Below are positions 1,594-16,276 of a stretch of 16,276 nt of DNA, one piece after another. Under the pieces are notes generated by a model, which saw nothing but the letters and a program-made list of their open reading frames with translations, did not search any database and was not told where the DNA came from. The stretch spans positions 1 to 16,276 of the IMG/VR virus record IMGVR_UViG_3300045988_170116; one strand, 5' to 3'. Source of the DNA: a virus. Both the position numbers and the translations under genes were made by a program. The number at the start of each line of letters is the position of its first letter. Within the stretch, counting starts at the first letter, position 1.

Positions 1594-1630
1594 TGTAGGC
1601 GGGCGTTGTGCCCGCCTACACTTTTATTTC
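1593..1630. terminator. Intrinsic terminator at the convergence point of plus and minus transcription units
   Basis: Perfect 12-bp stem gtgtaggcgggc (1593-1604) / gcccgcctacac (1610-1621), 5-nt loop, then TTTTATTT (1622-1629). It sits between the stop codons of 1369..1593 (+) and 1624..1926 (-). Confidence 0.8.
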
Positions 1631-1926: not shown

Positions 1927-2138
1927 TGGTCGCCTCGTGGCGTGTGTGCTAGTGCTGTGGCGGTGCCGAGCACTGAGGCCGCTAGGGATATCCACAGGGG
2001 GGCGGTGGTCTGGTCTACGATGCCGTAGACGGTCAGGATCGGGACCAGGGCTGTGATGATGCCGTATAGCCAGGCGCGGACCTGCGGGGTGAGCCACGAT
2101 AGGGGTTGCGGGCTAGCGTGACGCGGGGATTCATTCAC
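1923..2138 (-). CDS. Holin (two-TM, actinophage-type)
   Basis: Two TM helices (VRAWLYGIITALVPILTVYGI; LWISLAASVLGTATALA). Lies immediately downstream of the endolysin, with a GTGA start/stop overlap at 2135-2138. Confidence 0.75.
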   Translation of the reverse strand: MNESPRHASPQPLSWLTPQVRAWLYGIITALVPILTVYGIVDQTTAPLWISLAASVLGTATALAHTPRGDQ

Positions 2139-2896
2139 TTGGATGCTCCTACCTCGATCAGGGACACGAGATCATCAATGCGCTTCGACAGCGCATTGAT
2201 GCCGTCATATACTCGTGCGAAATTGGCTCCTGCCCACTCGATTTCTAGACCTGCGTCGGTTTGTTCATTGCTGATGCCGCCGTCTGTATCACGCTTGTAA
2301 TGTGGGGTGAGGAGGAGCTGTTCGAGCTTTTCAATCCTCATATCCATGTACCCAATCATTGCTCCCACGCTTCCGGTGTGTCCGTCCGGGCGTGTGATGG
2401 TGTCGGTAAGTTGCATGTCGTTCTCACTTTCTTCTGGGTGTGTTGAGAGGTAATCGAGTCGGTCTAGCTTGTCTATGTAGTTGCCGGGGCAAGCGGTAGC
2501 GAAATGGTCGCAGTGGCGCGAGAGTGGTAGGTATCCCCATTCGCTTCGGATAGCGGCGATAAGACGCGCGATAGTCCTCATGTCGCCGTCCGTGGCTGCG
2601 GGATGGCATTCGATTCCGATCGAGCGCGAATTGTTTCCGTAGCAATGCCAGGCGCGATCCCGGTCTGAAACAAGCTGCGTAATCCGTCCGTCTGATACGA
2701 CGTAGTGCGCGCTGGTGGGGTTAGACCGGTTTCCATCACTGAGAAAAGCCACGACTTGATCATGGGTTTGGTTCCATTCTGGGAGCCCCCACCAATGGAT
2801 GACGATTTCTGTGGGGTCGCCGTTGGGGCGACCGTCGTCGTAGTTTGGGCTTTGGTGGATGTCGGTAACCGCATAGTTCGGATTGATGTGGCTCAT
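2135..2896 (-). CDS. Endolysin: N-acetylmuramoyl-L-alanine amidase (Amidase_2/PGRP fold) with an uncharacterised C-terminal region
   Basis: Motifs EIVIHWWG, SAHYVV, AWHCYG..NSRSIGIE and RHCDHFATACPG (Zn ligands His/His/Cys). ATG 2896 overlaps the upstream stop (ATGA); the ORF-track start at 2905 is a GTG. Confidence 0.9.
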   Translation of the reverse strand: MSHINPNYAVTDIHQSPNYDDGRPNGDPTEIVIHWWGLPEWNQTHDQVVAFLSDGNRSNPTSAHYVVSDGRITQLVSDRDRAWHCYGNNSRSIGIECHPAATDGDMRTIARLIAAIRSEWGYLPLSRHCDHFATACPGNYIDKLDRLDYLSTHPEESENDMQLTDTITRPDGHTGSVGAMIGYMDMRIEKLEQLLLTPHYKRDTDGGISNEQTDAGLEIEWAGANFARVYDGINALSKRIDDLVSLIEVGASK

Positions 2897-3354
2897 GCGA
2901 TCCACGCCCCCTGTCCGTAAAACCTCCAGTTTTGCGTAAAGTGAGTGAAGTGATCGACGCGGATTTTAACGGTTCGCCCGGCTAGGATGAGTGTCATTGG
3001 GTATGAGTCCATGCCCGCTAGCATCCCGATAGGTATCCATGCAGAGCCGGTGGTGTCAGGCACTGGCACGCTAGAGGGGATCGTGCATAAGTCCACCTCA
3101 CTGGAAGCACGTTCAAAATCGAAAGCTGTGCGCGCGATTTCGAGCTCAAGAATGTGTAGAGCACCGAGGCTAGTAATTTTCCCTCCTCTACCTCCCCATT
3201 TCCAGCCTCCGTCGAAAACTGGGGCTTGTGCAGTTGCGGGTGTGAATTGTTTTTCGATTGCGGTGGCTGCAGCTTTTGCGATCGTCGGGAAATCCTCGAG
3301 CCGATCGGAGTCGAGAGGGTAGGGGAGGCTGAGGGTAGGTGTTGTGGCTGGCAT
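2893..3354 (-). CDS. Minor tail protein, candidate receptor-binding/tail-fibre protein (153 aa)
   Basis: Likely start is ATG 3354, preceded by GGAGAAAG. The N-terminus MPATTPTLSLPYPLDSDRLEDFPTIAKAAATAIE resembles the conserved N-terminal motif of actinophage tail-fibre-like proteins. It is the last tail gene before the lysis cassette. Confidence 0.55.
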   Translation of the reverse strand: MPATTPTLSLPYPLDSDRLEDFPTIAKAAATAIEKQFTPATAQAPVFDGGWKWGGRGGKITSLGALHILELEIARTAFDFERASSEVDLCTIPSSVPVPDTTGSAWIPIGMLAGMDSYPMTLILAGRTVKIRVDHFTHFTQNWRFYGQGAWIA

Positions 3355-3362
3355 TCTTTCTC

Positions 3363-5126
3363 CTAGTAGGTCAGTGACGATGTGTGTGCCCACGTGAGCG
3401 GGAGTGTTTGGTTCCATGTGAGGCCGGGCGGGAGTTGGTTCCATGTGAGGCCTCTACCGGTTGCGGCTGTCGTTGTCGTGTTGAGTTCAAGACGCCACCG
3501 CTGTTTTTCATACGTGTAGCGGCCTCCGTCGATAAACGCTGTGATCGTGCGTGCTGGGTACCATTCCGGAAGCTCAGTGATGGAAAGCATGAGGCCGAGG
3601 CGTCGTGTCGCGTCGAGGAGAGCTGCGAGAGTATCTGGCTGAGTCATGTCCGGATGTACTCGTGTGTCCCATGTGAGGTGCGGGATTGAGAAGCCTCCGG
3701 GGAGGTATGTTCTAAAGAGTCGCGCGGCGGCTGCTTCGGCTTGAGATTGAATAGCGAGAGAGGTAGACAGGCTTACTGTGCGGTATCCGATCCGGCGAAC
3801 GAGATCGCGGTCCTCGATCGTAATCGTGCGATCGGTTGAGGTTCGTCGTCCGTCGCTGTCGATGCCGGGCTGTTTCCATGTGAGGCGCGCGACGCTCGCA
3901 GCGTCCGAGTTTGACTGAGTAAGCGCTCCTGCGCGGAGTAGCTGCGATGCCGATAGGGAGTGAGCGGCTTTAAGCGCTGTCGTTTTGATCTTCCCATTAA
4001 CGAGAGAGATAATGCCGAGTGCCCCTCGCGTGGAGGGATCCTCCATCCGGATATACGGTCCCGTCGTTTTGTGCGTAGCGGCCCACATGACAGCTCCCGC
4101 GCTTGTAGCTGCAGATTTTAGGAGAGTTGCTGCAGATTGGTTGTCTACATCCTCCCAAATCAGAGTGCGCGCGGCTGGCACGGGGTCGATCACGATATTT
4201 GGGGCAATCGTTGAGGGCAGTGCTCGCGTAATCTTGTCAATTCGCGATTGGAGAGATTCGGTTTCCCAGACCTCGCCTCCGAGGTATACATGCTCGAGAT
4301 CAGCGAGAGTGTCAGCAGCGGTGAGAGAGAGAACGGGCCTGCGGGCCTCCTCGTCGAACTCGAGAGAGATGTCAGTGATTGTGCCTGCGAAAACTTCGGC
4401 GCGGATCGGCGCGGCCTCGCGGGGCCTCTGTAGAGTCACCCGGCGGATAGATCCGGTATTAAGTCCCGTCCATGTGCGCGTGTCTGAGTTCCATGCCTGC
4501 GGGCTTGTTTTCCACGCGGGGCCGGTGGGGGCAAATTGGAAAGCGAGGCCGATCCACGTGCCAGCGGCGGCGGCGGGGATAACCCAGGAGGCCGAGATAG
4601 ATCCGCTTGTATCCGTGCGTGCGACGCGCGGGCCGTAGCTTGGCTGCGCGGCGGGTCCGTGGAAATATGCTGGGAAAATCGACATTACGCCTTGTGCCGG
4701 TAGGCTAATCTCCGCGGTGATAGTCCACTGGGTACCTGCCACGGCTGCGGGCATTTCATCCCATGCTGCGGGATTATCTGAGTGCGCGGCGGGCGGGCAT
4801 ATGATCGTTGCGATATCGCGCGGGGAGTTGGGGTCTGCGTGGATCGCACCTGATTCGAGAGATCCCTCAAATGCTGTCGCGGCGGTGAGAGGCAGCTCAA
4901 TCGGCGTGCCGGTGGTGTACGTCGTGATATCCGAGGAGACAGTTACAGTCCGTCCGATCGTGTATGTTTGCATAGCGGATGCTGCGTCATCTGCAAAGAA
5001 CTGAGCTGTGCATGTAGCTGCGGCGGGTTGCGTCGCGGCGTTATCGCGTCCCCATGCGATCGTGAGGCGATCGAGAGCGGGTACGCGCCTCGAGGAAACA
5101 GAGAGAATGCATGTCGCGGTAGTCAC
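3363..5126 (-). CDS. Minor tail protein (587 aa; distal-tail/tail-tip protein)
   Basis: Lies directly downstream of the tape measure gene (GTGA overlap at 5123-5126). The N-terminal LTIAWGRD... region is typical of siphophage distal tail proteins. The call rests on position and size. Confidence 0.7.
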   Translation of the reverse strand: MTTATCILSVSSRRVPALDRLTIAWGRDNAATQPAAATCTAQFFADDAASAMQTYTIGRTVTVSSDITTYTTGTPIELPLTAATAFEGSLESGAIHADPNSPRDIATIICPPAAHSDNPAAWDEMPAAVAGTQWTITAEISLPAQGVMSIFPAYFHGPAAQPSYGPRVARTDTSGSISASWVIPAAAAGTWIGLAFQFAPTGPAWKTSPQAWNSDTRTWTGLNTGSIRRVTLQRPREAAPIRAEVFAGTITDISLEFDEEARRPVLSLTAADTLADLEHVYLGGEVWETESLQSRIDKITRALPSTIAPNIVIDPVPAARTLIWEDVDNQSAATLLKSAATSAGAVMWAATHKTTGPYIRMEDPSTRGALGIISLVNGKIKTTALKAAHSLSASQLLRAGALTQSNSDAASVARLTWKQPGIDSDGRRTSTDRTITIEDRDLVRRIGYRTVSLSTSLAIQSQAEAAAARLFRTYLPGGFSIPHLTWDTRVHPDMTQPDTLAALLDATRRLGLMLSITELPEWYPARTITAFIDGGRYTYEKQRWRLELNTTTTAATGRGLTWNQLPPGLTWNQTLPLTWAHTSSLTY

Positions 5127-7126
5127 AGCGTCACTCCGTGATTGCGCCAGTCTGCGCGCTGTAGGACGCGCTGGATTTCGCGAGCGGTAGCATCCGCGTC
5201 GAGAGCTCCATTCACGGTGATATTGACAGTCACAGGATTTCGCCCATACTCACGGTATGCAGAATTGCCGTTAAACGGAGCGATCGGCACGTTGAATGTG
5301 GGAGTGGGAGGGACTTCTACAAGGTTCGTGAACGCGTCATGTACCTTATCTGACTGCGATTCCAAGCCGAGTACGAGGCCTTGACCGGTGAAAACACCGA
5401 TCTCCTTAAACACGCGCGACGGGGATGCAATTCCCAAAAAGTTTTTAATACCGTTTACGGCTCCAGAGACGGTGCCCTTAATGCCTTCCCATAGTGCCGA
5501 GGCCATGTTCTTAATGCCATTAATCAGGCCTTGGATCACGTCGCGTCCTGCGGAATAGAGGAGCGAGCCGACGTTTCCGAGAGCGGAGAGGATTTGTCCG
5601 GGGATCCCGCTAATGATGTTCCAGAGGGCAGATGCTCCGTTAGATGCAGCGTTTTTCACCAGCTCCCATGCGGAGGACCAGAGATTACCTAGCGTATTTT
5701 TGATTCCGCTAAAGATGTTCGTAATGACGTTCCACATGTTGCCAACAAGGTTGCCGACAAGGGTAACGACGTTTGAGACGACGTTTTTCGCGGAATTCCA
5801 AGCTGCGGACCAGTCTCCGCTAAACAGTGCGGATACGAAATCTACAACGCTGTGTACAACATTAATGAGATCACCGAGATATGTTTTAACCGTTTCGACG
5901 ACTGCGGAAACTGCGGGCATGAACGCTGCGATAATCGGCTGAACGAACTGCCAAGCCGAGGTTGCCATATTAATAATGGCTTGTCCGAGCGAGAATAGCT
6001 GTGAGGCTACTCCGCTAACCCACGGTCCAACCGTCGCAAGCGCGTTTGTAACGGGCGTGAAATCGATTCCGTCGATAAAGTCCATGACCTTACCGAGAGC
6101 ATCTCCGACAAAGCTAAACAGGCCCTCGGCGATAGGACGCAGCGCCTCCATCCCGCGATTCTTGAGGATCTCCCATTTCTCGGCGGCATCCATCGTTTCG
6201 GCTCCGACCTCGAGGATAGAGTCTCCGGTCGCTCCGATATGTCCCATGAGATCATCAAGATTGATCGAGCCGCTCTTAATGGCTTGCACCATTTGAGCCG
6301 CTCCCTTGGTGCCGAACACTTTTCCGGCAAGATCGAGCGCACCTGCAGTGTCTCCGCGCTGCGTAAACTCCTCGATTTCGCGCGTGACTCGGAAGAACGC
6401 TGCTTGCATATCCTCACCGGGCTTGGCGACAGCGAGCATGCCCTTTTTCATGACTCCGAGCGTCGCGGCGGAGTCTACACCGGCTTTATCCAGCGATCCG
6501 ACGAGAGCGGCGCTCTCCTCGAAACTAAATCCGAGATCGGAAAGCGTCTCGGCACCTGCAGTAATTTTTCCAGCGAGATCGTTGATTCCCACTCCGGTTG
6601 CCTGCGATACCCTAAACAGGTTATCCATCGCTCCGGAGACTTCATCATTCGTGAGATTGAATGCATGAAACGCAGCCGTCGTGCTGTTAATATCGACATC
6701 TTCACCGAGGATGCGACCGGCCTCTAGATACTGCTTCGCAACGGTTTGCAGTTGCTCTCCGGAAAGACCGAGGCGAGTGTTCAGATCGGCTACCGTTTTA
6801 CCGGCATCCGTGAAAGAGGTCGGGATGGAAGTTGCGACTGCATGCGCGTCATCTACAAGCCCTTTGAGAGCATCTCCCGTTGCTCCGGTCCCTACGCGGA
6901 TCGTGTCCTCGACCTCATCAAATGTCGTCCCGATATCCCATAGGGCCTTAGTGGCGACAACTGCGGCACCTGCGAGAGCGGTTCCGATCATTGCCGCTGA
7001 GGGGAGGCCTCCGGTGATCTTAGAGAATAATCCTCCTCCTGCATCCTCAGTTTCGTGCATGGCTTTAACAGCGCTCGACGCGTCACCGAGGATTTTCACG
7101 GAGAGAATCGCGCTTTTACCAGCCAT
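5123..7126 (-). CDS. Tail tape measure protein (667 aa)
   Basis: Ala/Gly-rich helical protein with periodic Trp/Phe repeats (WNSAKNVV..MWNVITNIF..LWSSAWELV..LWNIISGI..LWEGIKG) and a C-terminal GIASPSRVFKEIG motif. Preceded by the G/GT chaperone pair. Confidence 0.95.
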   Translation of the reverse strand: MAGKSAILSVKILGDASSAVKAMHETEDAGGGLFSKITGGLPSAAMIGTALAGAAVVATKALWDIGTTFDEVEDTIRVGTGATGDALKGLVDDAHAVATSIPTSFTDAGKTVADLNTRLGLSGEQLQTVAKQYLEAGRILGEDVDINSTTAAFHAFNLTNDEVSGAMDNLFRVSQATGVGINDLAGKITAGAETLSDLGFSFEESAALVGSLDKAGVDSAATLGVMKKGMLAVAKPGEDMQAAFFRVTREIEEFTQRGDTAGALDLAGKVFGTKGAAQMVQAIKSGSINLDDLMGHIGATGDSILEVGAETMDAAEKWEILKNRGMEALRPIAEGLFSFVGDALGKVMDFIDGIDFTPVTNALATVGPWVSGVASQLFSLGQAIINMATSAWQFVQPIIAAFMPAVSAVVETVKTYLGDLINVVHSVVDFVSALFSGDWSAAWNSAKNVVSNVVTLVGNLVGNMWNVITNIFSGIKNTLGNLWSSAWELVKNAASNGASALWNIISGIPGQILSALGNVGSLLYSAGRDVIQGLINGIKNMASALWEGIKGTVSGAVNGIKNFLGIASPSRVFKEIGVFTGQGLVLGLESQSDKVHDAFTNLVEVPPTPTFNVPIAPFNGNSAYREYGRNPVTVNITVNGALDADATAREIQRVLQRADWRNHGVTL

Positions 7127-7131
7127 GAGTG

Positions 7132-7526
7132 TTACTCGCTTTCGTTACTGATAATTAGGAGAGCTGTCTCTAAGATTTCCGGAGGCTCACTCAGCCATAC
7201 AGAGGCGGGTATTCCGGTCCGCATGGCTAGAGCGACAACTGAGGCTGTTACCCCTCCGACCGGGTAGGGTTTTCCTCGTCCATGTCCTCGGTTCGCGCTT
7301 GATAATCGACGAGAACAGCGTCAACAAACGCCTCGTAATCGTCGGTAATCACGTTCGTGCGCTTGAGGGCCGAGTAGAGCATGATCGTCATCAGGCGCGG
7401 GCCGTCCTCGACGGGCCAACTATGCATGCGGCTTGTCTTTTCTGCGAGGACCTTGTCGGCTGCATAAACGCGCGTGGTTCCTACGGTTCCATCTGTGAGC
7501 TCGTAGTCAATAAATAGACGTTTCAT
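7132..7526 (-). CDS. Tail assembly chaperone frameshift product (GT-like), -1 shift at 7272..7266
   Basis: A -1 frame with no start codon of its own is open for 44 codons from the heptamer A AAC CCT (YPVGGVTASVVALAMRTGIPASVWLSEPPEILETALLIISNESE). It ends at TAA 7134..7132, 5 nt before the TMP ATG (7126). I translated it codon by codon. Confidence 0.6.
7248..7526 (-). CDS. Tail assembly chaperone (G-like, 92 aa)
   Basis: ATG 7526 overlaps the upstream stop (ATGA). Acidic C-terminus. Lies directly upstream of the tape measure gene and contains a slippery heptamer near its 3' end. Confidence 0.7.
   Translation of the reverse strand: MKRLFIDYELTDGTVGTTRVYAADKVLAEKTSRMHSWPVEDGPRLMTIMLYSALKRTNVITDDYEAFVDAVLVDYQARTEDMDEENPTRSEG
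7266..7272 (-). promoter_or_regulatory. Candidate -1 programmed ribosomal frameshift slippery heptamer A_AAC_CCU
   Basis: Plus-strand agggttt is minus-strand AAACCCT. In the zero frame it reads GAA AAC CCT, which satisfies the X_XXY_YYZ pattern. Confidence 0.5.
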
Positions 7527-7975
7527 TGTTTTTCTCCGGTTGCTTCGGCTAGTGCGTTTTCTAATTGGGTGATGTACATACCTACCCACTCCGGTTCGGA
7601 GACTGATGCTGCCTCTGTGAGGAAGAGAGAGGGAAGATAGACTGAGGGATGCTTTTTCCGGCCACTAGCGGGCTTTGGGCCTCGAGTGGAGGGCCAAATT
7701 TTGCGGCCCCATTGGATCATTCCCGCGTATGGAACTCGCTTGCTGCCAGCTTTTACCGTCGCAGCTGTCTTAGATCCTGCGGCGCGGATTGTTCCTGCGA
7801 GCTTTTGGCTCTTTCGCGGTACGAGGTGTTGAGCTTCGGCGACGACGAGCGTTGCAATGTCTTTATGCAGTTGCTTGAGGTCATCGAGGCTGTCGCCTGC
7901 GGCTTTCATGCGGCGGCGGTATTCTCGCGCGTTCGTCACCTCGACGAGCGGGCTTTTGCCGCGTCCCGTTCCCAT
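7523..7975 (-). CDS. HK97 gp10-like neck/tail-completion protein (150 aa)
   Basis: Pattern ...VVAEAQHLVPRKSQKLAGTIRA...VPYAGMIQWG resembles the HK97 gp10 family (aP..tG.L..si ... YA..vE.G). Confidence 0.6.
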   Translation of the reverse strand: MGTGRGKSPLVEVTNAREYRRRMKAAGDSLDDLKQLHKDIATLVVAEAQHLVPRKSQKLAGTIRAAGSKTAATVKAGSKRVPYAGMIQWGRKIWPSTRGPKPASGRKKHPSVYLPSLFLTEAASVSEPEWVGMYITQLENALAEATGEKQ

Positions 7976-7977
7976 GT

Positions 7978-8424
7978 CTAGGCGGGGAGGGGGCCGTATG
8001 AGATATCAGGGAGGCCTCCGACGGTGTTGAAAGTGAAATCCGTCGTGTTTTCCTTCTTGACTTCCCCTCCGATCGCGACGGGCTTGATCTTGACTTTCCC
8101 CTTGAGTGTCATCTGCTCGGTGTTGTTCGGAACGAACGTGTAGGGCATGATCTCGTCTGCGTGCGCGTAGGTCCATGCAACGATACCGTTCTTGTCAAAA
8201 TCCTGATAAAACGTACCGGAGAGTTCTCCGCTGATTTCACCGGAGGGCACAAACTCGCTGCCATCGAGGAGAGGAACGGGGTCCTCATCCTTAATAGTCG
8301 GCGAGAACTTGACGGAGGAGAGGCGCGCGGAGAACTCGCGTGCGGAGGCGGTTTCTCCGAAACGGAGAACTCCGGGGCCGAGCTTAGGGAACTTGGTTGT
8401 CTGCGGTGCCATGAGAGGGCTCAC
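7978..8424 (-). CDS. Major tail (tube) protein (about 145 aa)
   Basis: Small beta-rich protein between the head-tail joining genes and the chaperones (GVLRFGE...SVKFSPT...TLKGKVKIKPVAIGG...FTFNTVG). GTG 8424 overlaps the upstream stop; ATG 8412 is an alternative start. Confidence 0.65.
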   Translation of the reverse strand: MSPLMAPQTTKFPKLGPGVLRFGETASAREFSARLSSVKFSPTIKDEDPVPLLDGSEFVPSGEISGELSGTFYQDFDKNGIVAWTYAHADEIMPYTFVPNNTEQMTLKGKVKIKPVAIGGEVKKENTTDFTFNTVGGLPDISYGPLPA

Positions 8425-8777
8425 TTTCTAAACGTTGTCTCGAAACTGATCTCGAGAGCCGGGTAGAGGGTCCCGGCGAGGTCGATTGTGTCGGGGCGGA
8501 TTGCGGTGAGGGAGAGGCGCGGCTCGAGCTGGCTCGCGTATTCGAGGAGTGCGGGGAGTACTGCGAGGTGATCGCGGAAATCCGGATGCACGAGAGCCGC
8601 TTTCCACGAGCATGTTCCTTGTCCGTAGCCCTCGAACTCGATTGACTCCGGCGCTCCGATCCAGATGCATGATTCACCTGCTGCGAGATGCGGACGTAGG
8701 AGGTCAGGAGCGGTGATCACCGTGAGGCCGGGGATCGTTGCTGATTCTATGATGTCCTCGAGGTCGTAGAAACTCAT
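8421..8777 (-). CDS. Head-tail joining protein (stopper or tail-terminator candidate, 118 aa)
   Basis: The call rests on position only, between the adaptor and the major tail gene. ATGA overlaps occur at both ends. Confidence 0.4.
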   Translation of the reverse strand: MSFYDLEDIIESATIPGLTVITAPDLLRPHLAAGESCIWIGAPESIEFEGYGQGTCSWKAALVHPDFRDHLAVLPALLEYASQLEPRLSLTAIRPDTIDLAGTLYPALEISFETTFRK

Positions 8778-9088
8778 GCGAAAAACGCTTTCATGTACGG
8801 ACGTAGGAGCGGATAGGCGGGAGTGAGAGGATCGAGGGCGGGGCGGAAGAATTGGGCTGTTGAATCTGCGTCGAGAGCGGTTGAGGAATCGCGCGAGGAG
8901 GCGCGGCGGTTAAAGAGGTTCGCGGCTACCTCGAGGATTGCTGAGCGGCGAACAGCGGGAGGGACCGTGCTGTGTCCTATGAAGCGATCGACTAGGGCCG
9001 TCGCGGATTCGGTGCACTCTTCAATAAACGCTGTATCCGCAGCGGCTCCGTGCACGTATGCCGCGACGGCACTAGTCATGTCAGGCAT
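8774..9088 (-). CDS. Head-tail adaptor (gp6-like / QLRG-type connector)
   Basis: Lies immediately after the capsid gene. Pattern ...FIEECTESATALVDRFIG...VPPAVRRSAILEVAANLFNRR is typical of gp6-like adaptors. ATG 9079 is an alternative start. Confidence 0.7.
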   Translation of the reverse strand: MPDMTSAVAAYVHGAAADTAFIEECTESATALVDRFIGHSTVPPAVRRSAILEVAANLFNRRASSRDSSTALDADSTAQFFRPALDPLTPAYPLLRPYMKAFFA

Positions 9089-10625
9089 TGAACTTCACTG
9101 CCTTAATCAGTTCGGGGCGCGGCGTGTAGTGAGCGGCGTATCCGTACACTGCGAGCTGCTTCGTGAGGGAGAAAATCTGCGAGTCCTGCAGACGGTAGGG
9201 CGCACCCGGCGCTTCTTGCACGCGGATTGCTTCGCTCGAGAATCCGACTGCGTGCTTTCCGGTCCAGTTTGGAACGCGTTGCACGGTGATCGTTGCGAAA
9301 TCTCCTCGACCGGTCGGGAGAGTAATAGTGCCTTGGTGGTCAACGGGAGCGCTCGAGAACTGCAGTGCCTTCGGGGAGCGATCGAGAGCGGCGAGCGATT
9401 GGAACACCTGCGGGGAAACTGCGAGGCCGTCGAGGACGTAGGGGGTGGCATCGTATGCGTCGATCAAGGCGAGAACGAAATCGGTCCAGTCGTTGACGGT
9501 GGCAGAGTTGAGGTTCGCGATCGTCTTGAGCGGAGTGTTTTCAGCGGAGGTGACAGCGGTGTTAAACAGCTCGCGTGTCTTGTTCTCAATCGCGGTAGCG
9601 TAGGTAAATGCCTGATCGTAGAGGATATCATCGAGCAGCGAGATCGATGCACGCTCGACGGCCTCGAAACTGATCTCAGCGCCTCCGGCGTAAGTCATGA
9701 CAGCTGCGCTCTTAATCTCGTAGGGCGCGGGCCGACCGGTCGGGAGTGCCTCTGCTTCCTTATGGTCAGAGTCAACACTGATCGTGCTCGCTCCCTTCTT
9801 GACGGCATACTCGACAGTCATGCCCTCGCTGGGGAGATCAAACGTGTGCGTAAACAGATTCGTAACAACCTGCTTAGCCTGCATGCGCTTCTCGAGCGAT
9901 CCGAGCCATGCGGGGCGAGCAACGGCCTGCGCGAGGGTTGCACCTTCATAGGCTTGCACTGCCATTTCTTCACGCGCGGCAAGGGCCTTCGCATAGGCAC
10001 CAAACGAGCGATACTCAAACGGCTTTTCGGCGGAAGCAGACGACGTGCGCATAGAGCGGATTTCGCGCTCACAATCGTCAATTGCGGTCGTGAGCGGCGC
10101 GATCGCGTCGCTGATCTGAGAGCGGATTTCTTCGGGGTTCATTTGAGGCCTTTCGGGCTTGGTCTTATCGGGTTGGGTGCGGATTTCGGAAATTGTCGCG
10201 TCACTGTACGCGGGAAACTCCACTACCGAGAACTCGCGCGCTCGCACGTGCGTGTACGTGATGTGCGTGCCGTCTCCGTCGTCTCGAGTTTCGTACTCGA
10301 TCGGCTCAAATCCGATCGATAGTTTTGTGAGGGCTCCGTCGCGGATCAGCTGCGCAATATCGCGGCCTCGCTGAGTATCGGAGATCCGCGCGGTGATCTT
10401 GCGTCCGTCTGCGGTGTCCTCAGCGTGGGTGATCACTCCGATTGGCTCGGAGTGTCCATACCGGAGGATTGCTCCTGCATCGTCGATGCTTCCGGGAGCG
10501 AACTGCTCATACCAGTTCCCGAACGTAATCTCGCGGTTGAATGGGACTCCGATTCCCTCGATTGTGAGGCCGTCGATTTGCGCGCGGCACTCTAGGGAGC
10601 GTGTCTGCATACTTTCAAGATTCAT
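9081..10625 (-). CDS. Prohead protease :: scaffold/delta :: HK97-fold major capsid protein, single fused ORF
   Basis: The N-terminal domain has HK97-protease (S78) motifs LRYGHSEPIGV and KLSIGFEP. It is followed by a helical linker (MNPEEIRSQISDAIAPLTTAIDDCEREIRSMR) and a roughly 300-aa capsid-like domain, with no stop between them. The likely start is ATG 10625, overlapping the portal stop by 11 nt (or ATG 10610); the ORF-track start at 10763 lies inside portal. Confidence 0.85.
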   Translation of the reverse strand: MNLESMQTRSLECRAQIDGLTIEGIGVPFNREITFGNWYEQFAPGSIDDAGAILRYGHSEPIGVITHAEDTADGRKITARISDTQRGRDIAQLIRDGALTKLSIGFEPIEYETRDDGDGTHITYTHVRAREFSVVEFPAYSDATISEIRTQPDKTKPERPQMNPEEIRSQISDAIAPLTTAIDDCEREIRSMRTSSASAEKPFEYRSFGAYAKALAAREEMAVQAYEGATLAQAVARPAWLGSLEKRMQAKQVVTNLFTHTFDLPSEGMTVEYAVKKGASTISVDSDHKEAEALPTGRPAPYEIKSAAVMTYAGGAEISFEAVERASISLLDDILYDQAFTYATAIENKTRELFNTAVTSAENTPLKTIANLNSATVNDWTDFVLALIDAYDATPYVLDGLAVSPQVFQSLAALDRSPKALQFSSAPVDHQGTITLPTGRGDFATITVQRVPNWTGKHAVGFSSEAIRVQEAPGAPYRLQDSQIFSLTKQLAVYGYAAHYTPRPELIKAVKFNA

Positions 10626-11787
10626 TAGCGGTACTTTCTGGGGCGGCGGAGGCGGGGATTCCTTCGATTTCGCGGGCATACTTTGCGGAGTAGAGGCCCA
10701 TTTCAATCGCTGTTTTGTGAGCGGCGTAGCGCGTGGTCGTATCGGAGCGCAACAGTGCTTCAACGTTGAACTTCACGCGCTGCCCACGCGGGACAATCGA
10801 GGTGAGAGCGTCCTCGAGGCGCGTAATGTACGACTGCAAAGTAAAACGCGTGAACGCAATCCACTCCTGCTCAACATTGGAATAGGTCTGAGCGTTTCCC
10901 TCGACAGCTGCGAGGAGGAGAGGCGCGGGGATACCAAAGATCCGCGCGATCTGCACCGTATTAAACTGCTGCGCTTCAATCCATTGCGCTTCGCGGGGAG
11001 AGATGAGGATAGGAGTGTATGAGAGGCCGTGCGGAAATACTCGGATCCTCGAGGGATTAGCCGACATGTCGAGAGGATTCCCGTCAGCATCGAGATAGTT
11101 CCATGCATTGCGCATAGCAATGAGGTCATCGGCGGAAACCTTCTGATCGGTCGAGAGGATCCCGCTCGGCTGCCCGCTGTTCCTAAACCAGCCTGCAGCG
11201 AAATCGCGGATGTCCTTCGCGGTAGTCAGTTCCGTGTGTGAGGCTTGGATCGGGCCGAGGCCAGTAGCGCTACCGGGGAGAGTAAGCAGAGGCACGTGTA
11301 GAATCTCGTCGGTGCTGTAGCTCTTCCCCTTGTAGACAATAGTTTTCACCCCGGTTGCTTCGTCAATTACTGCGTGGCAGAGCCAAGGATCAAGGACGGT
11401 AAGGGAATCGACGCTATCACCGAAACGCTCGACCTTGATATAGGCGTTTCCAGTTGCGGCGAGGGAGATAGTTGCAGTCTCGACGAAATCTCCGCGCGAT
11501 TGGTGGAGGTTTGGGCGGCGGATGATTGACGGGATATCGGATGCTGCTAGCTGCTCTCCTTGCCTTTCCACGACGAGGGAAAGCTGTCGCATGGCTGTCG
11601 CGATGATGCTAATTGAGCGGTAGACGGCTGAGAGGCTTACTGCGGATCCGAGAGAGAGGTTACCGGGATCAGAGGCGCCGCGCACGCTCGCGAGGCCACT
11701 TGAGGCGAGCGTCGTCACATGCGGGTCATAGGCAGTTGATCGGGCTTCGATCCCGATAGCTGCGAGGAGGCGCGCTGTAAATCCCAT
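10615..11787 (-). CDS. Portal protein (390 aa)
   Basis: Size and position between TerL and protease/capsid. HK97-type portal-like sequence (..AYIKVERF..GKSYSTDEILHVP..WFRNSGQPSGILS..). An in-frame TAG at 11823..11821 fixes ATG 11787 as the first possible start. Confidence 0.9.
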   Translation of the reverse strand: MGFTARLLAAIGIEARSTAYDPHVTTLASSGLASVRGASDPGNLSLGSAVSLSAVYRSISIIATAMRQLSLVVERQGEQLAASDIPSIIRRPNLHQSRGDFVETATISLAATGNAYIKVERFGDSVDSLTVLDPWLCHAVIDEATGVKTIVYKGKSYSTDEILHVPLLTLPGSATGLGPIQASHTELTTAKDIRDFAAGWFRNSGQPSGILSTDQKVSADDLIAMRNAWNYLDADGNPLDMSANPSRIRVFPHGLSYTPILISPREAQWIEAQQFNTVQIARIFGIPAPLLLAAVEGNAQTYSNVEQEWIAFTRFTLQSYITRLEDALTSIVPRGQRVKFNVEALLRSDTTTRYAAHKTAIEMGLYSAKYAREIEGIPASAAPESTANES

Positions 11788-11878
11788 ATGACGATAAAAC
11801 GCGCGCGGGCCGGTGCATGTCTATTAATCGGCATCGTTTGGGTCATACAGGGGTTTGCACGGGCCATGAGAGGCCCTT

Positions 11879-13291
11879 TTATGCGACGAGTACAGGTACG
11901 TAGTTATCTTCGCGGTGCGTATCTGCATACAAAGCGACGCTAGCGGCGATGAGCGAGGGGATAGGAGCGAGGCTCTTTTCTCGATCGAGTAGCTCGAGGC
12001 CGTTCACGCGGCGCACCTGCGCTGCGGATAGGGCTTGTCGCAGCACGTCGGATCCGTCATGAGTGAGAGTGTGATCGTCGCGAGCAGCGGTGATAAACGT
12101 TTGATCGGCGAGGCGGCGCTCTTGAAACTCAAGGACTTTCACAGGGAGACTATCTCCGATTGAGTCGAGGATGCGGCGCACGGGTCCTGCTCCGTCCGCT
12201 GCGAGACGCGTAATCCCGCGCGCGTGCAAATCTTGTAGATAGGGGATGAGCCATGCTGTTCCCGGTGCTTGGTGGATTACTCGCGAGCACGGTCCTGCTT
12301 CTCCTTGCCATGAGGCCACGACAGCGGCGCACGCGTTTTGTGGAGCTACCTCGAACGCTACAGTGATGTCATCGAGCGAGGGAGCGATAATCTCCGTATC
12401 TGCTAGGTCATCCCACATCTGCAGAGGAATGAACGTGTCCTGCACGTCTGTTAGCCGGTTCATGTACGCTCTCATGAACTCGCCTTCACTCATCGAGTCG
12501 AGTTCATCTTTGAGCGCTTGCTCGGTGATCGTATTCCCAAGTGCTGGGTGGAACTTCCACCATGCGGCGGGATCTCGGTAGTCCTCACCTACGGGGAGCG
12601 AGAACTCGATATAACATATGCTCGGTTTGGTTCCTGCGCGGCCTTTTTCCACAAGATCGTTCATGAACTCACTTGCGAGTGTTCCCATCGTTGAGGTGTA
12701 CCAGCGTTGAGCTCGAGGGCCGAGCGTCACTGCGGACGGTCGCACGCCTCCGAGGATTGCGTCTCCCTGAGCTTTGGAGAAATACCAGATCTCATCCATA
12801 TCGACGTGAATACTTGTCTCACCGTGAATCGCTTCCTCGTTTGGTGTGAACTGCGAGAGTTTCGCACCGTTGGCTAGCAGCTCGAGGCCAGCGTCTCCTT
12901 TCCCTCGGCGGGGCTTGAAATAGCTTGATAGGGAGGACTGCTCTACTGCGTCGATCATGTCGAGCATACGGAGACTTGAGTGCTTCGCTGTTTGCGCGGT
13001 AGCAAAGAGGTGAGCGCTTGGATTCTCGAGCATGCGGAGGATACGGATAGGCCTAAGCAGCGTTGTCTTTCCGGATTGCCGAGGGACAGTCACGAGGACA
13101 TCTGAATACTTGTATAGCTTTTCTCCTCGACTGTTTAGCTTGTACTGCGTGCCCACGTCCCACACATACCGCTGCCACGGTTGCGGCATCTTACCGAGAG
13201 CGATCGAGATCGCAGTCAGCTTCGGTTCCTCACTTAGATACGACGGATCGCGGCGAGGACCGAAAGCGGGCGGCGGGAAATGAGTAAACAT
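11879..13291 (-). CDS. Terminase large subunit (470 aa)
   Basis: Walker A VPRQSGKTT and a Walker B-like HVDMDE. The C-terminal nuclease region follows. Lies directly after the small subunit. Confidence 0.95.
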   Translation of the reverse strand: MFTHFPPPAFGPRRDPSYLSEEPKLTAISIALGKMPQPWQRYVWDVGTQYKLNSRGEKLYKYSDVLVTVPRQSGKTTLLRPIRILRMLENPSAHLFATAQTAKHSSLRMLDMIDAVEQSSLSSYFKPRRGKGDAGLELLANGAKLSQFTPNEEAIHGETSIHVDMDEIWYFSKAQGDAILGGVRPSAVTLGPRAQRWYTSTMGTLASEFMNDLVEKGRAGTKPSICYIEFSLPVGEDYRDPAAWWKFHPALGNTITEQALKDELDSMSEGEFMRAYMNRLTDVQDTFIPLQMWDDLADTEIIAPSLDDITVAFEVAPQNACAAVVASWQGEAGPCSRVIHQAPGTAWLIPYLQDLHARGITRLAADGAGPVRRILDSIGDSLPVKVLEFQERRLADQTFITAARDDHTLTHDGSDVLRQALSAAQVRRVNGLELLDREKSLAPIPSLIAASVALYADTHREDNYVPVLVA

Positions 13292-13292
13292 T

Positions 13293-13673
13293 CTAGTTTT
13301 CGCGGGGATCAGCTGGCATAGGGATCATTACGGAGTCGAGAACCTCAGTGAGTTTCTGCAGAGGGTCGTGTGCTTGCTCTGCGGGCCTCGGGAGCTTATC
13401 AGCGATGTCATTAAGGGCCTTGAAGAGCTGAGCGCGTCCACTCGCTGCGTCGGTAGGTTTAATGTCGTCCACGGCGCGCGCGGCTTTGAGCACGAGGGCG
13501 ATCAATCCGGTGTGTGTCTCGTCGAGATATCCAGCTTCTTTCATTGAATCAATCTGAATACGATACGATTTCTCGACTTCTCCGGGATTCTCAGCTAAAT
13601 ACCCGCTATTTTGCCTAAAAATATCGCTATCTAGAGGCACGTCGATAAAGTCCATTTTGAGGTGAAACTCCAT
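13293..13673 (-). CDS. Terminase small subunit (P27-like by context, 126 aa)
   Basis: A small helical protein immediately upstream of TerL and downstream of the HNH gene and a noncoding gap, which is classic HK97-like HNH-cos-TerS-TerL synteny. Confidence 0.7.
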   Translation of the reverse strand: MEFHLKMDFIDVPLDSDIFRQNSGYLAENPGEVEKSYRIQIDSMKEAGYLDETHTGLIALVLKAARAVDDIKPTDAASGRAQLFKALNDIADKLPRPAEQAHDPLQKLTEVLDSVMIPMPADPREN

Positions 13674-13751
13674 TTTTTTTCAGTGTTTTGGGGAGGGACT
13701 TTTCGGCTAGCGCACGGTGTATCACCGTGATTTTAGCCAGAAAAAAACGCA
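13674..13751. other. Candidate cos / packaging-initiation region
   Basis: A 78-bp gap in an otherwise gap-free operon, between HNH and TerS. It contains a homopolymer T run at 13673-13680 whose first base is part of the TerS start codon, ggggaggg (13690-13697), a perfect 7-bp hairpin cacggtg-tat-caccgtg (13713-13729) flanked by ggcta/tagcc, and an A7 run (13741-13747). Confidence 0.4.
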
Positions 13752-14039
13752 CTAACCGGTGAACAATCGAGCTGTAGCGTCATAGATGATCGATGACGGG
13801 CCTTTATATTCACGATCGCGCTTCGCGCTATTGCATCTAATATGAGCGGGCCTGCAGTTCTCTAGCGTTGTCCTGCCTCCCTTGCTCCGTGGGATCAGAT
13901 GCTCGCATGATTCTTCCCCTCTCTTGATCCTTAATCCGCACAAGCAGCAGAGGTTTCCGTACACGCGGATTAGCTCGAGCGTGAATGCCTTCCTCTGCTT
14001 GTGTGAGAGGCTCGTCCAATCGTCCCTACGTGCTCTCAT
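13752..14039 (-). CDS. HNH endonuclease (95 aa)
   Basis: CCLCG...CEHLIPRSKGGRTTLENCRPAHIRCNSAK (Cys pairs plus HNH His-Asn-His/Asn core). ATG 14039 overlaps the upstream stop (ATGA); the first 64 codons of ORF 13752..14231 overlap the upstream gene out of frame. Confidence 0.9.
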   Translation of the reverse strand: MRARRDDWTSLSHKQRKAFTLELIRVYGNLCCLCGLRIKRGEESCEHLIPRSKGGRTTLENCRPAHIRCNSAKRDREYKGPSSIIYDATARLFTG

Positions 14040-14245
14040 GAGACAATCACCGGAGGCGCTGAGCGCGTGGTAGTGGTTGCGGCTTGATCGAGCCAGCGAG
14101 ACACGTGCGCTGGAATGTAGCGGACTCTGCGTCCAACCTTCACGAACGGTGGGCCTCCTCCTCGCTGCCTGAGCTTTCGCAGATACTCCGGCTCGACTTG
14201 TAAGAACAGAGCGCACTCTTCCTCGGTCCATGCTGTCGTTTGCAT
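14036..14245 (-). CDS. Excisionase-family helix-turn-helix DNA-binding protein (69 aa; candidate Xis/RDF)
   Basis: WTEEECALFLQVEPEYLRKLRQRGGGPPFVKVGRRVRYIPAHVSRWL matches the excisionase-family HTH pattern (Lt.eEaa..L.v...l.kl...G..P..k.Gr..ry....v..Wl). Confidence 0.75.
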   Translation of the reverse strand: MQTTAWTEEECALFLQVEPEYLRKLRQRGGGPPFVKVGRRVRYIPAHVSRWLDQAATTTTRSAPPVIVS

Positions 14246-14439
14246 CAGTCCACCTGATTCGTGAGATAGAGCGCGTGCATCATAAGAGCGTGTGCTTCAT
14301 TGAGCTGCGTATGTAGCTGAAGTTGCGTGCCAGAGCATGAGTAAGGAGAATCAGGCAGAGTCTCCTTAGCGTCAATGATGCTATCTAGAACAGCGTGCAC
14401 AGCGAGCTTGATATGATAGCGATCCTCCTCAGTAGTCAT
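14245..14439 (-). CDS. Hypothetical early protein (64 aa)
   Basis: Tightly coupled within the early operon (ATGA overlap at 14436-14439, TGATG at 14243-14247). No recognisable motif. Confidence 0.5.
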   Translation of the reverse strand: MTTEEDRYHIKLAVHAVLDSIIDAKETLPDSPYSCSGTQLQLHTQLNEAHALMMHALYLTNQVD

Positions 14440-15260
14440 AGCCGTGTGCCAACTCCCGTGAGATTCACGTGCTCCGCGCGCATATCAGCTTCAAGACTGC
14501 GTAGATCTTCATAGCTAAGAGCTCCGCATACTGCTAGCTCTTCGGCAACCGGATCAAGATCTACAAGCTCAATCCATCGAGCAGACGGAGTACCGGGATA
14601 TTTCTTCTGCATGTAAGCTTGATACGTGATCATTATCGTCATTGGCTTTGCCTCGCTAACAGCGGCAACGCTAACAGCGTTGCTCTTATTCGTTGGTGGA
14701 ATGGAAAGACTGAGAGAGCGCGAACCGCTTCGCGCGGTCGCTCTCTCGTAAGAGGAGAGGCTAGACGCGGTGTCCGCACGGCCCTTACCGCGACGGTGAT
14801 AGGGCTTAATTCTGAGCAAACGGAGCTTGGCGAGGCGCGCGGCTGTCTTAGCTGCCCTCAGTGGCAATACTGCTTCGTCATACTGAATGCGAGCATCTTG
14901 CACATAATCAACGAGAGCAGCTTTGTTAATCTTCATTGATCCCGGCTGAGGTTTCCCCTCTTCAATCCATCCGCGAGACCATGAGAGAATGCCTAGATCC
15001 TCGAGGATTGGGAGCCAGCGGCGCACGTGCCTCTCCGAGTATCCGGCGCGATCTGCGAGCTGCGAGGCCGTGATTGTCATATAACCGCGCGTATCTGTTT
15101 TGAGAGCACGCATAGTCCCTGCGAGCGTCTCGAGCAGCGTGCGTGCGCAGCGATTTTCAGAGCCTCGGAGAATACCCCAACCAGCGCGGCGCAGAGCATC
15201 CACGAGCTGATAGGCCGTCATCCCTGCATTAGTCATCGGTGCTCTCGCTTTCCGATCCAT
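14436..15260 (-). CDS. Winged-helix DNA-binding protein, putative replication initiator (about 266-274 aa)
   Basis: N-terminal HTH ITASQLADRAGYSERHVRRWLPILEDLGILSW, a basic Ser/Arg-rich linker and a C-terminal domain. It is the only large early gene. DNA repeats lie within the linker-coding region (14654-14747). The start is ambiguous (15260, 15236 or 15221). Confidence 0.45.
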   Translation of the reverse strand: MDRKARAPMTNAGMTAYQLVDALRRAGWGILRGSENRCARTLLETLAGTMRALKTDTRGYMTITASQLADRAGYSERHVRRWLPILEDLGILSWSRGWIEEGKPQPGSMKINKAALVDYVQDARIQYDEAVLPLRAAKTAARLAKLRLLRIKPYHRRGKGRADTASSLSSYERATARSGSRSLSLSIPPTNKSNAVSVAAVSEAKPMTIMITYQAYMQKKYPGTPSARWIELVDLDPVAEELAVCGALSYEDLRSLEADMRAEHVNLTGVGTRL

Positions 15261-15465
15261 CTGTTACACCGAGACCGACGCGAACAAAGTTCGCTAGTAA
15301 AGAGCGCAAATGGTCGAGAGCGTCGTAAGCTTCGTGAGCGTTTCGGAAGAGGTATGAAAGCTTGTACTGAAAAAGTGAGAGTTCGTAATCGATTTCGTCA
15401 ATAGCTTCAATGACGTAATCGAGCTGCTTATCATCTTTGATTTCGTGCAGAGGCTTACCAATCAT
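15229..15465 (-). CDS. Hypothetical acidic helical protein (78 aa)
   Basis: ORF in the early operon with an ATGA overlap to the upstream gene at 15462-15465. No recognisable motif. Confidence 0.5.
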   Translation of the reverse strand: MIGKPLHEIKDDKQLDYVIEAIDEIDYELSLFQYKLSYLFRNAHEAYDALDHLRSLLANFVRVGLGVTDGSESESTDD

Positions 15466-15638
15466 CGGTTCATCTCCCGATTCAGTTCAGAGCCGTACCA
15501 GAGCATCGAGACAAAGAAAGTCGCGAAATGAGGCCACGTCATCGTGTAACCAGCGATATTGAAAGAGGCGATCAATACCGAGATGAGAATCGCAAAGAAC
15601 GTAAGCGAAGAAATGAACAGGGCTTTATTAAGCTTCAT
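15462..15638 (-). CDS. Small two-TM membrane protein (58 aa)
   Basis: SD GGAGGAG (15652..15646) lies 7 nt before ATG 15638. TM helices ALFISSLTFFAILISVLIASF and WPHFATFFVSMLWY. Confidence 0.55.
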   Translation of the reverse strand: MKLNKALFISSLTFFAILISVLIASFNIAGYTMTWPHFATFFVSMLWYGSELNREMNR

Positions 15639-15867
15639 GGGTGTACTCCTCCATAGCAGCGGCTCCGAAAATGTCAAGACCGACCGGGATGCCGATCTGA
15701 ATAAGTCGATCTAGATCGTCCAGCTGCCACCTTGCAGCTCCGCGCATTCGTTGTGATAGCGCGGTTTGAGACATTTCAAGATCAGATGCCAAAGCCTTTT
15801 GGGAAATTGAGTGCTGTTGCATGTGCCGTTTAACTGTGCGTGTTACGGCTGTGTTGTAACTTGACAT
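15628..15867 (-). CDS. Cro-like XRE-family HTH regulator (79 aa), first gene of the leftward lytic operon
   Basis: HTH SISQKALASDLEMSQTALSQRMRGAARWQLDDL. Divergent from the repressor gene across a 100-bp operator region. Confidence 0.8.
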   Translation of the reverse strand: MSSYNTAVTRTVKRHMQQHSISQKALASDLEMSQTALSQRMRGAARWQLDDLDRLIQIGIPVGLDIFGAAAMEEYTHEA

Positions 15868-15967
15868 GCCATTAGTCTATTCGATTTCCAAATAGCTTGC
15901 AATATGAAAATCGAATAATTGTCAATTCACTATTGCATCCGTTTCGATTATCGAATACACTAACCGC
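15868..15967. promoter_or_regulatory. Divergent immunity switch: two back-to-back promoters with three ATCGAATA-type operator sites
   Basis: Rightward: TTGCAT (15933-15938), 17 nt, TACACT (15956-15961), 6 nt, ATG 15968. Leftward (minus strand): TTGCAA (15902..15897), 17 nt, TAGACT (15879..15874), 6 nt, ATG 15867. Operators: tattcgattt (15878-15887), aaatcgaata (15908-15917) and the palindrome ttcgat-t-atcgaa (15943-15955). Confidence 0.6.
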
Positions 15968-16276
15968 ATGAGCACAGCACTTTTAGAACGTTCACTAAAT
16001 GACGTTGTAGGAGAAAATATCCGGATCGAGGCCGCGCGGCGAGGCTATAGTCAATCCGCACTAGCGCGTGAAATCGAGATGTCACAGCCTGCGATTAATC
16101 AGCGCTGGCGCGGCGCTGCAAGGTGGCAGCTAGACGAGCTTGAAGCTATAGCGCAGCTTTTTGGCGTATCTGTGGCCTACCTAGTAAGCGACAATGCTCC
16201 AATGCCTACACCTATAGGATTGCGCCCCCGACAGGACTCGAACCTGCAACCTCGGGATTGGGAGGCGATTAGTTAC
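15968..16276 (+). CDS. cI-like XRE-family HTH repressor; the ORF is open to the window edge and reads through attR (3' end not in window)
   Basis: Absent from the ORF track because no stop lies within the window. My translation gives 103 codons with no stop: MSTALLERSLNDVVGENIRIEAARRGYSQSALAREIEMSQPAINQRWRGAARWQLDELEAIAQLFGVSVAYLVSDNAPMPTPIGLRPRQDSNLQPRDWEAISY. The HTH is paralogous to the cro-like protein. Confidence 0.85.
   Translation, partial: MSTALLERSLNDVVGENIRIEAARRGYSQSALAREIEMSQPAINQRWRGAARWQLDELEAIAQLFGVSVAYLVSDNAPMPTPIGLRPRQDSNLQPRDWEAISY
16222..16276 (-). tRNA. 3' part of a tRNA gene (5' half lies beyond the window) = attR core; isotype unresolved
   Basis: Minus strand reads ...GCAGG TTCGAGT CCTGT CGGGGGC G, i.e. 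T stem-loop with GTTCGAGTC consensus, a 7-nt acceptor strand and G at the discriminator position, with no encoded CCA. A CCTC-N8-GAGG hairpin directly 5' of the T arm fits a class II long variable arm better than an anticodon arm. Confidence 0.7.

Follow-up and report, generated by a model that had tools for sequence, protein, structure and literature searches.

Organization of the repressor locus

We analyzed one stretch of viral DNA, IMG/VR virus record IMGVR_UViG_3300045988_170116 (positions 1 to 16,276, its full 16,276 nucleotides; here called the window), with attention to a repressor gene, rep, at its right end, the phage attachment site, attP, and the integrase gene, int, at its left end. 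A first-pass annotation, made from the letters of the window, had placed attP inside rep and had likened the layout to integration-dependent immunity, in which a phage repressor changes its C terminus when the genome integrates. The features at the locus are as follows.

15968 to 16276, plus strand: rep, codons 1 to 103 of the 116-codon viral form, with its ATG at 15968.
56 to 97, plus strand: continuation of rep in the circular molecule, codons 104 to 116 (AASDPECVLRIAA) and TAA at 95 to 97; carries the conserved tail module ending in -AA.
1 to 55 and 16222 to 16276: terminal overlap of the assembly, two identical sequences.
16222 to 16259 (duplicate copy at 1 to 38), minus strand: common core of the attachment (att) site, 38 bp, equal to positions 37 to 74 of a host tRNA-Arg(TCT) and antisense to rep.
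16260 to 16276 (duplicate copy at 39 to 55), plus strand: first 17 bases of the phage P' arm; attP has TGG (Trp98) where attR has TAG.
108 to 920, plus strand: int, a tyrosine integrase of 270 amino acids (aa), with matches to Pfam Phage_integrase (3.4e-15) and a SAM-like N domain; ends in -RRVVEAAA.
Genome unit: 16,221 bp, the window minus the 55-bp terminal overlap.

From the ATG, rep runs for 103 sense codons to base 16276 and meets no stop before the window edge; up to the last window base the open reading frame (ORF) reads ...APMPTPIGLRPRQDSNLQPRDWEAISY, and its translation across the repeat is ...PIGLRPRQDSNLQPRDWEAISY. The DNA from base 56 onward begins GCTGCTAGCG..., and when base 16276 is joined to base 56 the frame continues to the TAA, giving a product of 116 aa that ends in -RIAA. 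Translation reproduced in this way the open frame and its continuation as first annotated, together with the spacing to the next gene: the rep stop lies 10 nt before the int ATG at 108, and the frame overlaps a TTG at 87.

The rep product is a Cro/CI-type helix-turn-helix (HTH) protein, with matches to Pfam HTH_3 (1.1e-7, residues 24 to 72) and to PHROG families of transcriptional repressors. AlphaFold2 placed the HTH domain at about residues 10 to 73, with a predicted local distance difference test (pLDDT) score of about 90, and gave no secondary structure for residues 74 to 116, with pLDDT below 50 over residues 98 to 116. The C-terminal part (residues 74 to 116), which comprises the core-encoded segment and the tail, is accordingly modeled as disordered, and such predicted disorder would suit both an exposed degron and a segment that tolerates coding antisense to a tRNA. 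Eighteen further open codons have a chance probability of about 0.4, and the read-through is not significant alone; the comparative evidence goes beyond chance, since dozens of relatives carry the same junction and, among 38 read-through products, 37 end in -AA or -VA.

The terminal repeat consists of a 38-bp core and the start of the P' arm

We set the core boundaries by comparing attP with an empty attB (L050), attL (L034 and L041), and attR of related loci, and found an exact match to a tRNA called by ARAGORN in L022. So defined, the core spans rep codons 85 to 97 and the first base of codon 98. At its end the window reads GGGATT followed by gggaggcgattagttac, whereas the attR and attB forms read GGGATT followed by agaaggcccttgctcta; what follows base 38 in the window, GGGAGGCGATTAGTTAC, belongs to the phage P' arm. 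ARAGORN did not call a complete tRNA anywhere in the window. When bases 1 to 38 are reverse complemented, they give a perfect T arm, the 3' strand of the acceptor stem, and part of the anticodon arm, and the anticodon stem cannot be completed by bases 39 to 55.

Only 38 of the 55 repeated bases match tRNA-Arg(TCT), the others (39 to 55) being P' arm, so the att core is just a part of the 55-bp repeat. The earlier description of the core as antisense to a tRNA held for the 3' half of that tRNA, but the attB, attL, and attR sites of relatives reduce the core from 55 bp to 38. Because the phage itself contributes bases 39 to 55, the window as it stands is circular attP DNA, with the attP junction itself at its right end; the circularization that the first-pass annotation had supposed to be required is unnecessary. 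Identity of attP with attL and attB begins exactly at window base 1, so the 55-bp repeat is best explained as a k=55 overlap of a circular contig. Most likely, the contig was cut at the branch in the assembly graph between attP and attL, as de Bruijn graphs behave at a branch point with k=55. The contig of a close relative, L048, was assembled by MEGAHIT (k141); its ends overlap by exactly 141 bp, and the rep-core-int junction (attP) lies inside it.

Scans with the exact 55-mer gave no match in genome contigs or viral contigs, because bases 39 to 55 are specific to the P' arm of this phage. A genome scan with a 37-mer ending in GGGATTGG, which is specific to the P' arm and blind to the tRNA, matched only L004, at a rep-core-int junction. 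An anticodon loop of Gly(CCC), as the window letters might be read, was ruled out: attR forms show the real loop, CTTCTAA, which is that of Arg-TCT, and the window departs from the tRNA at this point.

Free and integrated states among relatives

All four att sites are represented in relatives of the window, which come from many different metagenome samples. The attP form is found in the window and in circular L048. The attR form, with rep, core, and the tRNA 5' half in that order, is found in L006, L008, L010, L017 to L023, and L044 to L047; in 11 contigs the repressor passes through the same core into ...GGGATT followed by AGAAGGCCCTTGCTCTATCCATTGAGCTACGGAGGC, the antisense of the 5' half of tRNA-Arg(TCT), and ARAGORN called this tRNA in L018, L019, L022, L023, L044, and L045. 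In the attL form (L034 and L041), a host flank beside a permease gene is followed by GCGCCCCC... and then by core, P' arm, and int; L050, with an empty attB, has the same flank running directly into the tRNA.

One repressor allele was seen in both states. Circular L048 and integrated L044 are 96.5% identical over 10 kb and diverge directly after GGGATT; the same allele adjoins the tRNA in L044, and L045 has the same junction, followed by host genes such as MTHFR. At the protein level, the allele is represented by a 125-aa form in circular L048 (P0004) and by a 97-aa form beside the tRNA and host genes in L044 to L047 (P0007). These sites bear out three proposals of the first-pass annotation: that attP lies inside the 3' end of rep (the core falls within rep codons 85 to 98, with attP, attB, attL, and attR all seen in relatives); that the free phage has rep and int in a single unit, which integration splits between opposite prophage ends (attL holds int, and attR holds rep); and that the viral and prophage forms diverge before the TAA (TGG in attP versus TAG in attR of relatives, right after the core).

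The tRNA and its surroundings vary. The 3' acceptor strand is CGGAGGC in the attR of L019 and L023, which pairs fully with the 5' strand GCCTCCG; in L018, L022, and the empty attB of L050 it is CGGGGGC, so that U4 and G69 form a wobble pair. Only three of the base pairs in the anticodon stem of tRNA-Arg(TCT) are of the Watson-Crick type. Arrays can occur at the tRNA-Arg locus: the contig that contains L002 and L010 (IMGVR_UViG_3300045988_172259) carries, in order, host DNA, a first rep with a truncated core (..PPTGLEPATS*), remnant early genes, a second cro, a second rep, core, a second int, a complete prophage, a third rep, core, and tRNA. L004, on a 235-kb contig of a metagenome-assembled genome (MAG) labeled Trueperella pyogenes, has a repressor with the full tail directly beside host DNA, followed by int; we take this to be the right end of a remnant, with a newer prophage after it. 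L002 and L004, in which rep-core-int stands beside host DNA, were considered as a case against attP in the core. This was rejected, as the L002/L010 contig is an array of right ends of remnant prophages ahead of a complete prophage, and as the same host flank occurs at clean attL and attB sites.

Two C termini of the repressor

Relatives showed where the prophage-form stop codon lies, a point that the first-pass annotation had referred to flanking DNA. In attR sites where the repressor is in the same frame as in the window (frame A, see below), rep ends ...CGG GAT TAG, the stop directly after Asp97 being supplied by the complement of the tRNA anticodon loop. The prophage form of the window allele is therefore predicted to be 97 aa long, having lost 19 residues, WEAISYAASDPECVLRIAA, and gained no host-encoded residue. 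The proposal that integration changes the C terminus of the repressor thus stands as far as the loss of the tail is concerned, but its replacement by host-encoded residues does not, given the position of this TAG in relatives.

We surveyed 5.8 billion proteins for homologues and obtained 61 clusters. Read-through forms make up 38 of these: 37 clusters read into the phage arm and end in -AA (35) or -VA (2), and one (P0017) reads through without an -AA ending. Tail-less prophage forms account for 18, with 12 clusters ending ...LQPRD (frame A) and 6 ending ...SGLEGPCSIH (frame B); the rest are truncated remnants (3 clusters) and rep/cro chimeras (2 clusters). In 12 distinct P' arm sequences, the encoded tail keeps the module A-x-S-D-[PS]-E-C-x-L-x-x-A-A, with several of its codons changed synonymously. 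Other tails (...GSGAAA and ...WTQAA, as well as ...DSAA in gp35 of mycobacteriophage Charlie) show no evident similarity to this module and have the terminal -AA alone in common with it. The suggestion that the -RIAA tail is an ssrA-like degradation tag is supported at the sequence level by the endings of the read-through homologues, which recur in two frames, by the -DSAA of Charlie gp35, and by the predicted disorder of the tail; we refer to it below as a putative tag.

Int consists of a SAM-like N domain and a catalytic domain only, with no arm-binding domain, and is about 41% identical to integrases of Gordonia and Mycobacterium phages. The C terminus RRV[VI]EAAA was present in all eight integrases inspected, the loci of which are about 64 to 69% similar to the window Int. 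The gap between rep and int is 10 to 13 nt, with no obvious Shine-Dalgarno sequence before int, and no terminator lies in the 10-nt gap of the window; this spacing suggests translational coupling.

The core is crossed in two reading phases

Repressor alleles cross the core in two frames: frame A reads LRPRQDSNLQPRD, and frame B, one base out of phase, reads PPTGLEPATSGL. With arms beginning ...GGGATTAGTG..., frame B arrives at the same tail, ...VCIPGFADSDPECILRIAA (L029, L030, L032, P0011, and P0013 to P0015), and frame B alleles in attR (L017, L020, and L021) end ...EGPCSIH. Alleles and arms also occur in different pairings. P0002 consists of the first 97 residues of the window repressor and a different arm, and in P0029 a different repressor is followed by an arm with a tail that matches the window tail at 18 of 19 residues; together with the pair P0004/P0007, these combinations indicate that modules are exchanged at the core.

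Some junctions are out of phase. A frame B repressor is joined to a frame A arm in L001 and L027/P0017, which end ...VETFR or ...VEVFR, and likewise in the second junction of L002 (at 5736), which ends ...GDCRRLRR. In the opposite combination (L037), a frame A repressor with a frame B arm stops at TAG, like the prophage form; the long frame A arm is open in both frames. At least one out-of-phase junction sits in an array of prophage remnants, so these may be hybrids between tandem prophages and not viable phages. It is possible, though we hold this only tentatively and would sooner doubt it, that heteroimmune alleles use the core in two phases with length-matched arms, that integrase-mediated exchange shuffles alleles and arms, and that phase either sets which alleles and arms are compatible or generates variants of the switch.

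Genome and host

The other genes are those of a small siphovirus. PHROG annotation of the minus-strand operon gave a replication-initiator-like protein, an HNH endonuclease, terminase, portal, protease-capsid, connector, major tail, tape measure, and minor tail proteins, and an amidase; this gene content is that of a complete small siphovirus genome. The terminase is 35% identical, with 95% of its length aligned, to that of the small phages of Arthrobacter Cluster AN (about 15.5 kb, e.g., Maggie). Size, structural gene set, and terminase place the phage among the small-genome actinobacteriophages (Cluster AN/CW-like siphoviruses, 14 to 18 kb). Megablast of the whole window against the deposited phage collection gave no match at the nucleotide level. 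Trueperella pyogenes is the label of one host MAG, that of L004, and the assignment of the host group, Actinomycetaceae, rests on this label.

Comparison with known integration-dependent immunity systems

Integration-dependent immunity was defined in the mycobacteriophages BPs, Brujita, and Charlie (Broussard et al. 2013; PMC3694055, PMC4557955), in which the tagged viral repressor is degraded, Int is tagged and armless, and there is no excisionase (PMC3694055, PMC4557955). The window shares with these phages a three-gene cassette of int, rep, and a divergent cro, and an attP inside the 3' end of rep that overlaps a tRNA gene. The prophage repressor is shorter than the viral one in BPs (136 to 103 aa) and, by prediction, here (116 to 97 aa), and the viral form ends like an ssrA tag (-DSAA in Charlie gp35), alongside an armless integrase that is tagged at its C terminus; for the window, both tags are putative. 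By blastp, Rep is 28% identical to Charlie gp35 over residues 1 to 101 (E value, 1.5e-12) and 31% identical to Redi gp38 (E value, 1e-13). The best tblastn match in the phage collection was the Cro-like gp36 of Charlie, not its immunity repressor; in direct pairwise comparison, gp36 scored slightly above gp35 and Redi gp38, both of which also align. At the level of sequence features, namely, the cassette, attP in rep, two C termini, and an armless Int ending in -EAAA, the likeness to BPs, Brujita, and Charlie drawn by the first-pass annotation is borne out. The window phage differs from them in host (Actinomycetaceae, by one MAG label, versus Mycobacterium) and in genome size (16 kb versus 41 to 43 kb). 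Set against them, it also has tRNA-Arg(TCT) as its target, a 38-bp core, and a prophage stop that comes straight from the tRNA anticodon loop; rep and cro are clear paralogues, the core is crossed in two reading phases in the group, and a weakly excisionase-like ORF lies downstream of int.

Two groups of small phages are closer in size. The same switch was reported for the Gordonia Cluster CW temperate phages Jeanie, McGonagall, GMA5, and GRU3 (PMC5559632) and in the Bifidobacterium prophages Bb423phi2 and 689b-1, of about 18 kb, in which 18 C-terminal residues with an ssrA-like tag are lost on integration (PMC6109161). Common to these and the present group are a small genome, int at attL, rep at attR, and an att core of 37 to 39 bp in the 3' end of a tRNA gene. 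The targets differ (tRNA-Lys and tRNA-Met in the Gordonia and Bifidobacterium systems and tRNA-Arg(TCT) here), and the viral-only residues number 18 in Bifidobacterium and 19 here; the viral form was reconstructed in Bifidobacterium, whereas here it was seen directly in circular assemblies.

The layout, already known from mycobacterial, Gordonia, and Bifidobacterium phages, is thus extended to a new host group; otherwise, only the use of two phases across the core and the exchange of modules there may be new. A full-text search of one literature collection found, among the matches listed, no report of integration-dependent immunity in Actinomyces, Trueperella, Arcanobacterium, or Schaalia. With the present loci, integration-dependent immunity comes to include small phages from one more actinobacterial host group; the loci also form a clean natural data set, with all four att sites, one repressor allele in its free and integrated states, and many heteroimmune alleles sharing one core. 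The three-gene switch with its 38-bp site may serve as an integration vector or immunity marker for these poorly tractable bacteria, and the core, being used in two phases, lends itself to studying how modules are exchanged through attachment sites. If the phase rule is true, a phase mismatch would yield an untagged viral repressor (as in L001 and L027/P0017) in the course of mosaicism mediated by att sites.

Proposed switch and alternative explanations

Our reading, to which we assign a probability of roughly 0.75, is that the window represents, in its circular (attP) form, a temperate siphovirus of 16.2 kb whose host belongs to the Actinomycetaceae, and that this phage uses an integration-dependent immunity switch. 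In the free phage, rep would specify the 116-aa repressor with a disordered tail, WEAISYAASDPECVLRIAA, that ends like an ssrA tag. The armless tyrosine integrase would recombine the genome at the 38-bp core within rep codons 85 to 98. The 5' half of the tRNA would then adjoin rep, and a TAG supplied by the anticodon-loop complement directly after Asp97 would end the repressor at 97 aa, with no tail; int and the tail-coding segment would come to lie at attL, the opposite end of the prophage, separated from the rep promoter, and an intact tRNA would be rebuilt at attR. By analogy with BPs, Brujita, and Charlie, the tailed repressor would be degraded by ClpXP or a similar protease, and a stable repressor, hence immunity, would come only from the integrated genome. 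Int, with its -EAAA ending, would likewise be unstable, its instability would set the frequency of integration, and being armless it would work with no excisionase.

Several observations weigh against this reading. The prophage form of the exact window allele was not found among the homologues, the closest prophage forms being 82 to 84% identical, and a metagenome scan with a pattern specific to the window repressor allele gave no match. Out-of-phase junctions between rep, core, and P' arm (L001, L027/P0017, and the second in L002) yield tails with no -AA, so either the tag is not universal or these are hybrid or tandem junctions. Conservation of the tail-coding DNA may stem instead from a role as an integrase-binding arm or from coupling of rep and int translation. 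Finally, the MerR/HTH_17-like ORF at 1369 to 1593 is weakly excisionase-like, and the canonical systems have no xis.

The conserved tail-coding DNA is the starting point of an account that accepts attP within rep and holds that the tail is not a degron but P' arm DNA or a driver of int translation, that both repressor forms are equally stable, and that the lysis-lysogeny decision is made in some other way. It is favored by the 10- to 13-nt gap before int with no obvious Shine-Dalgarno sequence, by conservation of the same DNA at attL and at out-of-phase junctions, where it is not translated as rep, and by the existence of out-of-phase viral forms (P0017). The -AA or -VA ending, however, is kept in two phases by length-matched arms, and it is also retained in tails that do not evidently resemble the main module and in the family of the Charlie repressor, which has been studied experimentally. 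Synonymous changes at several tail codons, and the use of exactly such a tag in experimentally characterized systems (PMC4557955), also speak for a function of the peptide; moreover, coupling to int and tagging are compatible with each other. We consider this account unlikely, though not to be dismissed lightly. A simpler view is that the read-through is incidental, a tRNA-derived att site happening to overlap the end of an ordinary repressor gene, so that both forms are functionally alike. Eighteen extra open codons are not improbable by chance, and integration at tRNA genes is common among phages, but many heteroimmune alleles conserve the layout, the ending of the tail, and the matching of phases, the repressor is homologous to characterized integration-dependent repressors, and the whole cassette fits the defining architecture; this makes a coincidence highly improbable.

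It might also be supposed that the window is a prophage excised in silico between 55-bp attL and attR sites, in which case the true repressor C terminus would be host encoded past 16276 and the circular join hypothetical. Exact 55-bp direct repeats at both ends, with a window start exactly at the tRNA 3' end, would agree with this. Bases 39 to 55, on the other hand, do not fit the tRNA, whose anticodon stem they break, and match the P' arms of relatives; in genuine attR and attB sites, base 38 is followed by AGAAGGCCC.... A start at the core boundary is equally expected where attP and attL merge in an assembly graph, and L048 has the same junction inside a circular k141 contig. We give an excised prophage hardly any credence as the source of the window.

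Control region and neighbouring genes

Further features lie to the left of rep and downstream of int.

15628 to 15867, minus strand: cro-like HTH gene with Pfam and PHROG HTH matches, divergent from rep and first gene of the minus-strand early/structural operon.
15868 to 15967: rep-cro control region, 100 bp, with three TATTCGAWW sequences, at 15878 to 15886 (plus), 15909 to 15917 (minus), and 15949 to 15957 (minus).
1369 to 1593, plus strand: MerR/HTH_17-like ORF with a weak match (E value, 1e-5) to PHROG 66, "excisionase and transcriptional regulator," and a better one to a generic DNA-binding family.

Cro and Rep are 42% identical over 71 aa and, from this similarity, are paralogues. All three matches to TATTCGAWW in the window fall inside the control region, with 0.43 expected over the whole window, which makes them candidate operator half-sites. 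An inverted repeat, I15, also lies in the control region. A scan of the control region for the sigma-70 consensus gave no promoter match.

The two genes have in common a 75-nt inverted repeat (15710 to 15784 and 16069 to 16143; 72% complementary) that encodes the motif RGAARWQLD[DE]L. Three database proteins (P0039, P0040, and P0043) look like reciprocal chimeras, rep-N/cro-C and cro-N/rep-C, and the contigs of P0039 and P0043 are both 15,856 bp long; such chimeras would be the product expected from inversion of the control region through the 75-nt repeat.

Downstream of int, a plus-strand cassette (944 to 1622) begins with a near-consensus promoter, TTGACA-17-TATAGT (962 to 990), inside a 24-nt palindrome (944 to 992). 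Small hydrophobic ORFs follow at about 1040 to 1130 (read by eye) and at 1181 to 1372, then the MerR/HTH_17-like ORF and a strong bidirectional terminator (1592 to 1622). The cassette could be a prophage-expressed "moron" or an excisionase-like regulator.

Within the structural genes, a 560-aa ORF (9081 to 10763) matches both head maturation protease and major head protein families and thus represents a protease-capsid fusion; its listed extent shares about 150 nt with the portal ORF (10615 to 11787), so that the true start of the gene probably lies further downstream. In the minor tail region, an exact 18-nt direct repeat, TTGGTTCCATGTGAGGCC, occupies window positions 3408 to 3452, its copies 27 nt apart, at the overlap of the ORFs at 2893 to 3444 and 3363 to 5126.

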